A stretch of 64,000 nucleotides of DNA from Escherichia coli (GTDB lineage: Bacteria; Pseudomonadota; Gammaproteobacteria; Enterobacterales; Enterobacteriaceae). The notes under the pieces were generated by a model that had not been told where the DNA came from, ran no database searches, and saw nothing but the letters and a program-made list of their open reading frames with translations. The stretch lies in assembly GCF_041886205.1 (NCBI RefSeq), contig NZ_CP169029.1. One strand, 5' to 3'. Shown piece by piece: positions 1,082 to 53,329 of the stretch (position 1 is its first letter; every line of letters starts with the position of its first letter). The position numbers and the translations under genes were made by a program.

Positions 1082-3715
1082 TCAGCCAAGGCGGTAGATA
1101 AATGTCCGTGACTGCCCCGGTAAAAATGCCCCCAGTTCCTTTAAATTATCTCTTTCCGCTGTGCTGATGCTTTCATCCATCATCGTTTGCGTACATGAAA
1201 TCACCTCACGACTGAACGCGACAGTTGCCTCACAGGTTGTCGATTCTGCCGGATTAAACAGTCGCAATACCACTTCTTGCCGGTCTTCCGCTTTTTTAAG
1301 AGCGCTAATCAGGCATCCCACAGGAGGCATTTTCAGCAAGCTATGGCTTTCCGGCACATTGAATCCGGCTTTATTTAACTTCATCGCATCCCATGGGATT
1401 TTGTTGTAACACTGTACTGGCGTCAGCCATGCACGCGCCTGCTGGGCTACACCGGCGGTCGCAGGCGTACCTGTATAACTAAATAAGCTCAGACGGCAGC
1501 TAAAGGAGCCACGTAATTGTGAATCGGGCACCGGCATTTTTATGCCTGAAGGACGTCCAGGCCTTAAGAGCAGATCTTCTTTGCCCAGTAAGCCCACGCC
1601 ACGCAGCAACGTAATGGCAAAGGTTTTCTTCTCTTCACCGATGACTTCGAATTCACGTAGCCCTTCGCTAAAGACAGCCAGACCGTTACGCCCTTCCTGT
1701 AAGGCAGCATAGTTGAGCATATTCCATACCGGAACAGGCGCTTCTTTCCAGCCTTCTTGTTGCCAGACATCCATCGCACTGTCGCTCACCGGGCGCGTTA
1801 GTGAACCAAACTGGGTATCGGCCAGAACACTGTCGGTGTTAAAAGGTGTAGGGACCAGGACGCGAAGGCGATGATCGTCAGCCTGGTTATCAAGGTTGAT
1901 ATCCACATCAATACGTCTGCTGTTATCACTCAGAGTGACAACCAACTCCACCCCTACTCTGCCAGTGGATTGCCGGGCGCTGCGTTCTGACAAATTGAGC
2001 GGCACTGCCATGTCATAGCGGATAACAGCCCTGCTCTGCCAGGCTTCATGAATAATATCGCATTGCGGTTTCGCGTTCGCCGCGGTAATTACCCACTCTT
2101 CTTTTGCGGGTGAATAGTCATATTCATCACCATCATCAGAGCTTTCTTCAATTTGCAACACCCGGTCATAGCGCACACCGCTATCTTTATCTACCAGTTG
2201 TAGCGTTCCATCCTCATTGAGCGCAATTTGCCAGAAAGCATTTTCCAGTATCCCTTCAGCGTTACTTTTTGCCGCAATCACGTTGCCAGGCTGATTCGCT
2301 TCGATATAAAGCGTGCGATAGCCCATAGAAGGGACAATCTGGTTGATCTGTATATCAAACTCCATAAAGGGATCGTAATTACCGTAATGAACGATTTGCC
2401 GATCGATTAGGCCAGGATCGATCTCACGGGCATGGCGAATAAAATACGGCACAGGATGACCGCGATCGTCCCGTAAATTAAACTGGCTGGCGCGCAGGCG
2501 CACAGTGGTGTTAATCACTTCTTCTCGCGGCCAGGGCATCAGGTTAAACAGGACGAGTTTGTCGGCGTCGCTCTGCGGCATGTTGTCGGCGATTTTACGC
2601 ATATAGAAACGAATCAGATTATCCGCCATGTCTTCAGCCAGTTCGAAGCGGGCGACGATTTCGCGATGAACTTTGTCACTGCAACAACAACCGATGCTGT
2701 CGTGGGCATGATTTTTTAAGATCTCTTTCCACATTTTCTCCAGCAAGCCGTGGTGGTATTCAAAACCCAACGTCCAGGCCAGCGTTGCCAGCGGTTCCAG
2801 CAGATTAACAATCTTATTTTCAATACGTGCGTGGGCAACTTTGATATCCATGCGCGTGGAACCGATGGTGCGATGTACGCGCATATATTTGCCATCAATA
2901 AATTCACCTTTCAGGGTCGCCAGACTTTCACGCTGCGCTTCAATCTGCTCGAATACCTCTTCAAAGCGGCTCATCACAAACTTTCGTTGAGGATAAATTT
3001 CGCGAAGTTTCTCCATCACTTCGAAGATATTTTGCTGCAATGGCATCTGGTCATGACCATTCGGCAGCAAAATCTCTTTGGTTACTGACGCTTTTTCCAG
3101 CACGTCAAAATAGCTGTCGAGGCGTTTACGTAATCCGTCTTCGTCCGCAGGTAAGTACTTACCGATGGCATAACCCAACGGCAGCACCTGCGCCGTCACT
3201 TCGCTACCGTCACTGCTTTGCCACAAAAACTCGGTTTTATCCGTACCGTGGCGCTCAGAACATCCGCGCCAGAACATGGTGCGGGTAATGCCAAATCCAT
3301 TGTAGATATGCGGCAGTTGCCCGGACATGCCAAAGGAATCCGGTAAATAACCTATTTTCATCGGCTCGCCAAACGCGAGGCAGTCACGCATTCCGTACAT
3401 CAGATTACGGACGATGGATTCCGCAGAAACAATCGTGGTATCGGTCTGGGTATACCAAGGGCCGATAATCAACTTGCCGGCTTCTACCAGTTTCTTCACG
3501 CGGTCTTTGTTTTCCGGTTTCACCGCGAAATAATCTTCGAGGATCGCCGTTTGCCCGTCGAGTACGTAATATTTGTATTCGTTGTCCTGTTCCAGTCGGC
3601 ACAGGATCTCTTCCATATTATTGACCAGCAGAATGCGTGACTCTTCGGTGGTGAAATACCACTCCCGATCCCAATGCATATGCGGGGTGATGTGAACGCG
3701 AGATACCGCTTTCAT
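1082..3715 (-). CDS. mngB: Mannosylglycerate hydrolase (GH38 alpha-mannosidase)
   Basis: 877-aa ORF; N-terminus [21 protein letters not shown] typical of GH38; length and position next to mngA match E. coli MngB. Confidence 0.95.
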
Positions 3716-3732: not shown

Positions 3733-5709
3733 TTATGGCATTACGCCATCAGTCAGATAGTTGCCATGCTTAACCGCGTGACGCCGCCAGATCAGGAGAA
3801 TTGCAGTCGAGATTGCAGCCCCCACCAATGCCGCACCAAACCAGCCAATTGCCGCCATAACACCGCCCGCGCCATTATCATGAAGTAAAAAGAGCGAGAA
3901 AATGCCGGCACCGGGTGTCGAAAGGCCGATATTCATCGCGCCGACGATAGCGCCCGTTACCATAGAGCCCAGCACAAACGAACCAATAACCCGCAGCGGA
4001 TCTTCAATCGCCATCGGGATAGCCCCTTCGGTAATACCTGCCAGCCCTAACAGCCAGGTGGATTTCCCGGTCTCAATTTCAAACTCTTTAAACAGGCGCG
4101 GTGCGAGCATCGTGGAAGCGGTTACGGTAAATGCCGAAACCATTTTGACGGAGGCGAAAATGGCATACGGGCCGTAGACGCCGTTCGCCATTGCGCCCAG
4201 GCAGAATGCATAAGCGGCTTTGTTCACTGGCCCTCCAAGGTCAAAGGAACACATAAAACCGAGAATGGCACCCAGCAACAGCGCGTTACTTCCTGACAGA
4301 CCGTTCAGCCAGGCGGTAAGCGAGTTATTGATCCAGGCGACAGGTTCCCCCACCACAAACAGCATCAGACTGCCCGCTCCCAATGTACCGAGCACCGGGT
4401 AGAGATAAAAAGTCAGGAAACCATTGAATTTACTGCTAAGACGCAAGTAATTTTTCACCCAGCGCATCAAGTAACCGGCTATCAATCCGCCAACGACCGC
4501 GCCGAGAAACCCGGAGCCGATCATGTTGGCGGCAAGTCCAGCCGCAAAGCCTGGCGCTAACGCCGGTTTATCTGCCAGTGAATAGGCGGTGTAGGCTGCC
4601 AGCACCGGTACCATCAAAATCCCGAGCATCCCGCCGCCCAGCTTGCGGTACATCCACAGCCAGGAGTTTTCTTCATTAAAGAGATCTTGTAGCCCGAAGA
4701 TTTGCGACAGTAATACCGCAACCGCCAGCACCGTGCCCCCCGCGACAATCAACGGCACGGCGAAAGAGATCCCGCTCAACAGTGCCTGTTTCAGCTCCGT
4801 TTTGACACTTTTCACCGGTTGCGTGTCTTGCTGTACGGTACGCGTCTCATCGCTACGCTTGAGGGTAAGCGCTTGTTGAATCAACGCTTCTGCATGGCGA
4901 ATCGGCTCGGCAACAGGCACTGAAAGCGCGGGAATGCCATTAAAACGCTCACTCTCCTTGATGGCGACTTCAGCCGCAAAAATACAGGCGGTTGCACTAT
5001 TGAGTTGATCCGCCGTTAAACGCCCTTCAATGCCGTTAGCGCCTTGTTTTTCAACGTAAACATTTACGCCGAGTTTGCGTCCGGCTTTTTCCAGATATTC
5101 CGCAGCCATATAGGTGTGAGCAATACCCGCCGGACAGGCCGTTACGCAGACGATAGTTGGCGCGTTGGAAAAAGAGGCAGAAGGTTGCGAGCCTCCCTTG
5201 TCATCCAGCGCCGAGAGCAATTCATCAGGCGTCGTCGCCGACTGTATACGCGCCCGAATCTCATCATCCGCAAGGCGCGTGGTCAGCGCTGTCAGCAGTT
5301 GCATATGCGTAGTACCCGCTTCATTGGGGGGAATCGCCAGCAACACCACTAAATCAACTGCTTCCGGGCCATCAACGCCTTCCCACTGAAGCGGCTCGCT
5401 GAGTGTGGCGACCGCAAACGCCGCTTCTTTTACCGCAGCAGTTTTGCCATGCGGCACAGCCAACCCTTCACCTAAGGCGGTCGGGCCAAGGCTTTCACGG
5501 CGATACACTTCTTCCAGAAATTGCTCAGTACTGGAAATTTTCCCCAGAGCAGCAAGACGTTGAGTCAACGCGTGGATGGCCTCTTCACGGCTGTTAAAGC
5601 GCGCATTCAGACACAACGCATCGCGGTGGGTCAGAGTCGTCAGATTCATAATGATCCTCACTTGATCGTTTTTATAGTCGCGCCAGTGTGCCCGATAAAA
5701 CAATACCAT
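3733..5709 (-). CDS. mngA: PTS 2-O-alpha-mannosyl-D-glycerate-specific EIIABC component
   Basis: 658-aa ORF, fructose-like PTS permease with many TM segments; directly upstream of mngB. Confidence 0.95.
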
Positions 5710-5817
5710 TATGTGATCAATTTCACTTGATTGAAATTATTTGTATTGTATTTGTATTATTTACAGGATGAATTTATCGGGCATAATGGCTAAATTCGTA
5801 TTAATGAGATACTAAAA

Positions 5818-6540
5818 ATGGGACACAAGCCCTTATACCGGCAGATTGCCGATCGCATTCGTGAGCAAATTGCGCGTGGGGAGCTTAAACCTGGCGATGC
5901 GTTACCCACTGAATCAGCACTACAAAGAGAGTTTGGCGTCAGCCGGGTTACGGTGCGTCAGGCTTTGCGCCAGTTAGTCGAGCAACAGATCCTCGAAAGC
6001 ATTCAGGGCAGCGGGACTTACGTCAAAGAAGAGCGGGTCAATTACGATATTTTTCAGTTAACCAGTTTTGATGAAAAACTGTCGGACCGTCACGTCGATA
6101 CACACAGTGAAGTCCTGATATTTGAAGTGATTCCGGCTGACGATTTTCTTCAGCAACAGCTACAAATCATCGCGCAGGATCGTGTGTGGCATGTGAAGCG
6201 CGTGCGCTATCGCAAGCAAAAGCCAATGGCGCTGGAAGAAACCTGGATGCCGCTTGCGTTGTTCCCGGATCTCACCTGGCAGGTCATGGAAAATTCGAAA
6301 TATCACTTTATTGAAGAAGTGAAGAAAATGGTTATCGATCGTAGCGAACAGGAAATCATTCCTCTGATGCCAACCGAAGAGATGAGCCGTCTGCTTAATA
6401 TCAGCCAGACTAAGCCGATTCTTGAAAAAGTATCGCGGGGATATTTAATTGATGGTCGGGTGTTTGAATATAGCCGCAACGCTTTTAATACCGATGACTA
6501 TAAATTTACCCTGATAGCGCAGCGAAAATCATCGCGATAA
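5818..6540 (+). CDS. mngR: GntR/HutC-family transcriptional repressor MngR (FarR)
   Basis: 240-aa ORF with N-terminal GntR-type HTH (LPTESALQREFGVSRVTVRQAL); divergent from mngA. Confidence 0.95.
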   Translation: MGHKPLYRQIADRIREQIARGELKPGDALPTESALQREFGVSRVTVRQALRQLVEQQILESIQGSGTYVKEERVNYDIFQLTSFDEKLSDRHVDTHSEVLIFEVIPADDFLQQQLQIIAQDRVWHVKRVRYRKQKPMALEETWMPLALFPDLTWQVMENSKYHFIEEVKKMVIDRSEQEIIPLMPTEEMSRLLNISQTKPILEKVSRGYLIDGRVFEYSRNAFNTDDYKFTLIAQRKSSR

Positions 6541-6544
6541 GCAC

Positions 6545-6643
6545 AAAAAAGGCCATCATACGATGGCCAACCATGTCGAAACCGACAGCCCTTCGCCATT
6601 CCTGTAGAGGGAAGCGGCGAGGGCTATTTCTTATTACAAGTAT
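6545..6643 (-). ncRNA. sdhX: SdhX (RybD) sRNA derived from the sucD 3'UTR, ending in an intrinsic terminator
   Basis: Region immediately 3' of the sucD stop on the minus strand ends in hairpin ggccatc-atac-gatggcc (6551..6568) followed by a U6 tract on the minus strand; position matches the known 3'UTR sRNA. Exact 5' end is not determinable from sequence. Confidence 0.55.
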
Positions 6644-53308: not shown

Positions 53309-53329
53309 TTTTGTGAGTTTTGTCACCAA
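53309..53329. promoter_or_regulatory. CRP-binding site in divergent nagE-nagB promoter region
   Basis: tgtga-gttttg-tcacc matches CRP consensus TGTGA-N6-TCACA; cAMP-CRP control of the nag regulon is established. Confidence 0.5.

Follow-up and report, generated by a model that had tools for sequence, protein, structure and literature searches.

The mngA and mngR genes of Escherichia coli are transcribed divergently from a short stretch of DNA that contains tandem repeats and a palindrome, and this raises the question of which proteins these elements serve and how they control the two genes. We examined the region within a 64-kb window (64,000 nucleotides, the whole stretch of DNA that was analyzed), in which mngB, mngA, and mngR are followed by sucD and sucC. 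The gene beside the repeats is named mngR in RefSeq. Its product carries a GntR domain (PF00392; E value, 2.7e-24) and a UTRA domain (PF07702; E value, 8.4e-37), which places it in the HutC subfamily, as the first-pass annotation had proposed. According to secondary sources, mngA and mngB are the sole targets of MngR, the genes are induced by the addition of mannosylglycerate, and phosphorylated mannosylglycerate is the predicted effector. The 301 bases at the locus (5600 to 5900) match an E. coli chromosome with 100% identity. Of 5426 complete E. coli genomes, 3867 contain them, with the genes named mngR and mngA in the annotation; about 29% of the genomes are without the locus. Taken as a whole, positions 5650 to 5817 probably form a divergent mngR/mngAB control region in which the known tandem operator, a predicted CRP-dependent promoter, and repression by MngR are combined.

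The extent of this region depends on where mngA begins. The gap had been put at 108 bp, which is right for the longest open reading frame and for the legacy annotation of K-12 MG1655 (start at 765984, equivalent to window position 5709; 658 amino acids) but not for a start at 5649, with which the gap is 168 bp. In RefSeq, mngA of five other strains is annotated from 5649, giving 638 amino acids, and the 38 orthologues from other genera can all be aligned starting with the Met at this position. Many of the orthologues, including those of the closest relatives (Citrobacter), have an in-frame stop 4 to 8 codons 5' of this Met, and the 20-codon N-terminal extension of the longer form is not conserved among relatives. 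The ATG at 5709 is missing from the E. coli ST131 allele, and the EIIA domain starts at residue 9 of the 638-amino-acid form (Pfam boundary). A conserved Shine-Dalgarno sequence, GAGGA, precedes 5649, whereas none was found before 5709. The RefSeq strains, the orthologue alignment, the in-frame stops, the ST131 allele, the conserved GAGGA, and the EIIA boundary all point to ATG 5649 rather than 5709 as the true mngA start, and the intergenic region is therefore 5650 to 5817. The analysis thus supports correcting K-12 mngA from 658 to 638 amino acids.

The choice of start codon also bears on the palindrome, which had been described as overlapping the mngA ribosome-binding region. If mngA did begin at 5709, as in the longest open reading frame and in the K-12 MG1655 annotation, the palindrome would be 3 nt away from the start and could act on translation initiation or directly adjoin the coding sequence. 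We consider this very improbable, since each of the observations just given for 5649 (the position of the only Shine-Dalgarno sequence, the stops and the lost ATG in the extension, the RefSeq starts of the other strains, and the domain boundary) argues against it. With the conserved start at 5649, the palindrome is 53 nt upstream of GAGGA and clear of the ribosome-binding site.

The remaining elements were located by consensus matching and by comparison across species, and their coordinates are given in Table 1. A genome scan provided 38 orthologous loci, including those of Citrobacter, Enterobacter, Kluyvera, Buttiauxella, Atlantibacter, Leclercia, Serratia, and Edwardsiella, and mngA is divergent from mngR at all of them. 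Column identities were calculated from a 36-species alignment of the control region. The blocks that contain the tandem boxes and the palindrome have mean column identities of 0.93 to 0.94, compared to 0.45 to 0.55 for the diverged flanking DNA.

Table 1. Features of the mngA-mngR control region and adjoining genes, in window coordinates, with mean column identities from the 36-species alignment
Feature	Coordinates	Strand	Mean identity	Details
mngB	1082-3715	-		
mngA coding sequence, conserved start	3733-5649	-		638 amino acids; PTS EIIA, EIIB, and EIIC domains
mngA Shine-Dalgarno sequence GAGGA	5655-5659	-		5 nt before ATG 5649; within the conserved GATCCTCAC block of the alignment
Putative mngA -10 hexamer CACACT	5685-5690	-	0.84	Predicted transcription start at ~5678
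Candidate MngR box L, GGTATTGTTT	5698-5707	-	0.84	Inverted relative to boxes 1 and 2; at about -29 to -20 of the putative mngA promoter
CRP-type site, TGTGATCAATTTCACT	5712-5727	.	0.93	TGTGA-N6-TCACT; center at 5719.5; the palindrome of the first-pass annotation
Variable spacer	5728-5738		0.45	
mngR promoter Pa (RegulonDB mngRp)	5731-5760	+		-35 TTGAAA, 18-bp spacer, -10 TATTAT; start at G5767
Tandem boxes (block)	5739-5764		0.94	
MngR/FarR box 1, TGTATTGTAT	5742-5751	+		8/10 match to TGTATTAWTT; 11 bp before box 2 in 38/38 orthologous loci
MngR/FarR box 2, TGTATTATTT	5753-5762	+		10/10 match to TGTATTAWTT, as published; shares bases with the Pa -10 and the Pb -35
Promoter-like element Pb	5760-5787	+		-35 TTTACA, 16-bp spacer, -10 CATAAT; predicted start at ~5794; from the consensus scan
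Variable spacer	5765-5780		0.51	
Upstream open reading frame, MNLSGIMAKFVLMRY	5768-5815	+		15 codons; opens the Pa transcript, starting 1 nt from the 5' end that RegulonDB gives for mngR
GCATAAT (Pb -10)	5781-5787		0.95	
Variable spacer	5788-5796		0.55	
Candidate MngR box R, CGTATTAATG	5797-5806	+	0.72	44 to 46 bp downstream of box 2
mngR coding sequence	5818-6540	+		GntR winged-helix and UTRA domains; HutC subfamily

The tandem repeat string TTGTATTGTATTTGTATTATT was confirmed at 5741 to 5761. It is part of a perfect 10-nt direct repeat, TATTTGTATT, at 5738 to 5747 and 5749 to 5758 with a period of 11 bp, and the same repeat can be read as the two 10-mers beginning with TGTATT that are listed as boxes 1 and 2. 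In dinucleotide shuffles of the 168-bp region, a short-range direct repeat of at least 10 nt arose in 32 of 5000 (0.6%), and the five GTATT pentamers seen here arose in 4 of 5000 (0.08%). The tandem repeat therefore exceeds chance.

These repeats had been suggested as operator half-sites for MngR, and this agrees with what has been published for the protein under its other name, FarR. In the list of Suvorova et al. (2015; PMC4494728), who cite Quail et al. (1994), FarR is one of the exceptions within the HutC subfamily, with "direct repeats TGTATTAWTT" as its binding site. A 2025 preprint describes, in its summary of the primary work, the experimentally determined primary site of FarR as 21 bp long and made up of a pair of imperfect 10-bp direct repeats, TGTATTA(A/T)TT. 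An exact TGTATTAWTT occurs only once in the 64-kb window, as box 2, and the 21-bp stretch from 5742 to 5762 reads box 1, a single T, and box 2, with the two repeats spaced by one turn of the helix; the published site thus maps uniquely to this stretch by a consensus match to secondary reports. The control region differs from that of K-12 MG1655 at two positions, both of which are outside the boxes. Given the unique match, the 21-bp span, and the unchanged K-12 boxes, positions 5742 to 5762 are, by consensus match, the known primary MngR (FarR) operator, and the finding restates a result from 1994. Taken by itself, a repressor site that was mapped in 1994 in the best-studied bacterium matters little.

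The 64-kb window has no second copy of the exact tandem pattern, and no convincing match to another tandem MngR site was found there. The canonical HutC palindrome core (GT-N-TA-N-AC or GTMTAKAC), searched for by eye, is absent from 5650 to 5817; FarR with its direct repeats is a listed exception to the palindromic HutC operator (PMC4494728). The same source describes NagQ (HutC subfamily; TGGTATT repeats) and NanR (FadR subfamily; TGGTATAW repeats), which likewise use short direct repeats of the GGTAT/TGTAT type over the regulated promoter and not a palindrome, although the proteins, repeat sequences, and copy numbers differ, and the mng region would have two tandem boxes, one inverted box, and one distal box. 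A further direct repeat, D1, with copies of TCACTTGAT at 5658 and 5723, probably arose by chance, given that the ST131 allele does not have it.

The operator is also variable in natural E. coli strains. In K-12-type alleles, positions 5738 to 5762 form a (TTTGTA)n tract whose length differs among strains. There are two TGTAT copies in ST131, three in the window and in K-12, five in G6/7 (+12 bp), six in B18271 (+18 bp), and 11 in OkiPb01688 (+48 bp). Lengthening of the tract would disrupt the spacing of promoter Pa and add MngR boxes, and a length-variable hexamer tract as operator is relevant to the use of MngR as a strong repressor in synthetic circuits. The three expanded strains could also be taken as a sign that the TGTATT repeats are a slippage-prone, AT-rich microsatellite, or an AT tract for H-NS or SlyA, and that the match to a repressor site is incidental; H-NS was flagged at this spacer by Shimada et al. 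(2014), and mngAB expression has been reported to increase 3.4-fold on SlyA overproduction. However, the two plus-strand TGTATT boxes and their 11-bp phasing are kept at all 38 loci, including alleles without a hexamer tract. One of these is the ST131 allele, in which the operator reads TGTATTAAAT-T-TGTATTATTT. The published footprint work, as reported in later sources, gives the site to FarR, and the binding of H-NS or SlyA would add to the binding of MngR and not replace it. We therefore regard an incidental match as highly unlikely.

The tandem operator is located in the mngR promoter region. The mngR transcript in RegulonDB begins with Gatgaatttatcgggcataat, corresponding to G5767, and the operator spans -25 to -5 relative to this start. 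The promoter for this transcript, Pa, was recovered by a consensus promoter scan and is also listed for mngR by Shimada et al. (2014) as TTGAAA-18-TATTAT; its spacer and -10 hexamer are covered by the operator. The -35 hexamer of Pa is in a variable stretch of the 36-species alignment and is not conserved outside K-12-like E. coli strains. In contrast, the hexamers of the second promoter-like element, Pb, are conserved, with TTTAC and GCATAAT nearly invariant at a fixed spacing, and its -35 hexamer is overlapped by box 2. Because the Pb hexamers are conserved and the Pa -35 is variable, Pb may be the ancestral mngR promoter and Pa an addition of the K-12 lineage. The upstream open reading frame at the start of the Pa transcript is translated, and mutation of its AUG raises mngR expression (PMC4965119); it is not conserved outside E. 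coli. A divergent allele of the locus with approximately 90% intergenic identity, of which ST131 is an example, was found in 547 records. This allele is without the Pa -35 and the legacy mngA ATG; boxes L, 1, 2, and R are all retained, as are the CRP-like site and Pb.

The palindrome TGTGATCAATTTCAC was confirmed at 5712 to 5726. With one additional base, it has a single mismatch to the CRP consensus TGTGA-N6-TCACA and matches the 22-bp CRP consensus at 14 of 22 positions, compared to 15 of 22 for the lac site. The lac CRP site is itself TGTGA-N6-TCACT, so that its core half-sites are the same as those found here. A match of this quality is expected by chance approximately twice per 64 kb, and the CRP reading therefore rests on context. 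One other match to TGTGA-N6-TCACA with no more than one mismatch is present in the window, at 53312 to 53327 (TGTGAGTTTTGTCACC). Exact TGTGA-N6-TCAC sequences were found in 20 of the 38 orthologous intergenic regions and twice in the other 224 kb of these loci, an enrichment of approximately 300-fold. The bases that CRP reads, G in the GTGA half and C in the TCAC half, show little or no variation across genera, and the site is located upstream of a PTS sugar operon. The palindrome thus most probably serves mngA as an activator site for cAMP-CRP. A search of the accessible literature returned no paper linking CRP to mngA, mngR, or hrsA, and the mng genes are not mentioned in the main text of the CRP genomic SELEX paper.

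Binding of a different regulator to this element (TGTGATCAnTTTCAC), for example, Cra/FruR, FNR, or MngR itself, was also considered. MngA is a fructose-family PTS gene product, as would suit Cra/FruR; the minus strand, TGAAATTGATCA, resembles a Cra half-site (TGAAWC) in a by-hand comparison; and the conservation of the central GATCA..TTTC goes beyond what CRP by itself would need. However, a Cra site would have a central C, and at the corresponding position here the base changes freely between species without ever being C; the near-invariant G and C named above are those that discriminate CRP from FNR. For MngR, neither GTATT nor the GT-N-TA-N-AC motif typical of HutC operators is present in the element. 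Cra and FNR were compared by hand with consensus sequences and not with a scored matrix. The distance from the element to the putative mngA -10 hexamer is in addition that of a class II CRP promoter, and another regulator at this position appears unlikely.

This distance would connect the CRP-type site to mngA. In approximately 35 of 38 species, an nAnnnT hexamer begins precisely 29.5 bp away from the center of the site, whereas the spacing from the CRP-like site to the elements on the mngR side varies by 1 to 2 bp. Within the hexamer, the invariant bases are A5685 (position 6) and T5689 (position 2), which occupy the most informative positions of a -10 element. Fourteen species have CACAAT as the hexamer, whereas E. 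coli has CACACT, Serratia TATGAT (as TGT-TATGAT), and Edwardsiella TATCAT. A TGn motif precedes it in 29 of 39 sequences; E. coli has GGG at this place, and its putative -10 is weak and without the TG of most relatives. The consensus scan found no sigma-70 -35/-10 pair on the minus (mngA) strand, as expected for an activator-dependent promoter. The 29.5-bp geometry would be that of a class II promoter with CRP centered at -41.5, a predicted transcription start at ~5678, and a leader of ~28 nt, and the legacy ATG at 5709 would then be upstream of the mngA transcription start. In the accessible part of the Cappable-seq supplements, K-12 coordinates near the predicted starts had no match.

Two other candidates for the mngA promoter were rejected. 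TATAAA at 5678 to 5673 as the -10 hexamer would put CRP at approximately -53.5, and this block is poorly conserved. The second is the promoter TTAATA-19-GATAAA of Shimada et al. (2014; ~5773 to 5805, minus strand), a candidate constitutive mngAB promoter from genomic SELEX with RNA polymerase, which would start transcription at ~5766 and is compatible with the legacy start codon at 5709. Transcription of mngA from this promoter would make the tandem boxes a roadblock at approximately +5 to +25 and would place the CRP-like site within the leader. Neither of its hexamers is conserved in the 36-species alignment, and it was rejected as the main mngA promoter on this ground; the promoter scan also returned no qualifying promoter on the minus strand. 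In addition, it leaves unexplained the strict spacing between the CRP site and the -10 hexamer, which extends to Serratia and Edwardsiella. We consider this reading improbable.

That mngAB is driven by a so far unreported class II cAMP-CRP promoter, with an extended -10 in most Enterobacterales, is put forward tentatively and judged somewhat less likely than not. In this proposal, MngR boxes flank the CRP site, the inverted box in the -29 to -20 spacer on one side and the tandem operator on the other, and the promoter has been hidden by the misannotated K-12 start. This estimate covers both the promoter being real and its not being recorded already in RegulonDB, EcoCyc, or the primary papers. 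The same tentative reading holds that the K-12 start is annotated 60 nt too far upstream, beyond the real transcription start, and that a repressor and an activator compete or cooperate on ~65 bp.

The two additional boxes are L and R, each of which matches 8 of 10 consensus positions in E. coli. In most species, box L reads TGTATTATTT or TGTATTGTTT on the mngA strand. Its AATAC core is invariant, and in 34 of 38 orthologous loci its distance to the CRP-like site is fixed at 10 bp. Box R is GGTATTA in most species. We infer that boxes L, 1, 2, and R form a four-box operator array, of which only the tandem pair has support in the literature. Such a layout could help to clarify the recognition of direct repeats by a dimer of the HutC type.

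These elements suggest the following mechanism. MngR bound to the tandem boxes would shut off mngR by excluding RNA polymerase, as the boxes overlap both mngR promoter candidates, and autorepression would result. On the other side, cAMP-CRP at -41.5 would activate the weak CACACT hexamer of mngAB, and MngR at the inverted box L, between the CRP site and the -10, would block the mngA promoter directly. The tandem boxes, at -64 to -84 relative to mngA, and box R may contribute to this repression. In a survey of synthetic promoters, MngR was among the strongest repressors and gave similar repression from proximal and distal positions (+1 and -103), and the distal effect agrees with MngR also repressing mngA while bound at the upstream boxes. 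Induction would follow from the release of MngR by mannosylglycerate, which probably acts as the phosphorylated compound, and CRP would limit expression to conditions without a preferred sugar. None of the four rival explanations fits the conservation pattern as well as the combination of the operator with a class II CRP promoter.

Compared to the FarR/MngR operator of K-12 (Quail et al., 1994; Sampaio et al., 2004), the tandem boxes are the same element without difference, and boxes L and R, Pb, and the CRP site are additions predicted here. Together with the 168-bp extent and the start at 5649, these would be modest refinements of a known operator. If the CRP site is functional, it predicts catabolite control of mannosylglycerate use and would complete the picture of a two-gene regulon.

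The proposed arrangement has counterparts among well-studied promoters. The galP1 promoter is a class II CRP-dependent promoter with an extended -10 element. The candidate mngA promoter shares with this type the 29.5-bp distance from the CRP center to the -10, the lack of a -35, and TGn in most orthologues; it differs in that the E. coli allele is without TG and has a weak -10. In the divergent nagE-nagBACD region, operators for NagC, a ROK family protein, flank a CRP site and form a loop of ~115 bp. The likeness to mng consists in a divergent PTS transporter/regulator locus with sites for a sugar-specific repressor on either side of a single CRP site that is situated between two promoters. 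However, the flanking boxes at mng are only ~50 bp apart, and the repressor is of the HutC type.

Several minor observations were made at and around the locus. An 18-nt inverted repeat with 89% complementarity (5682 to 5699, GCCAGTGTGCCCGATAAA; 5773 to 5790, TTTATCGGGCATAATGGC) pairs the sequence around the putative mngA -10 with that around the -10 of Pb and gives the control region a pseudo-dyad; other species share only its GGCAyAAT core. By analogy to K-12, in which sdhX (b4764) is located directly after sucD, the small RNA SdhX is expected at approximately 6541 to 6643 on the minus strand, between the mngR stop and the sucD stop and convergent with mngR. In E. coli 1217KP, almost the whole control region is gone (locus 2550-2588), with only 37 bp left between the mngA ATG and mngR, which is itself shortened. 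An internal stop makes mngB a pseudogene in this strain, and the pathway may thus be in decay.
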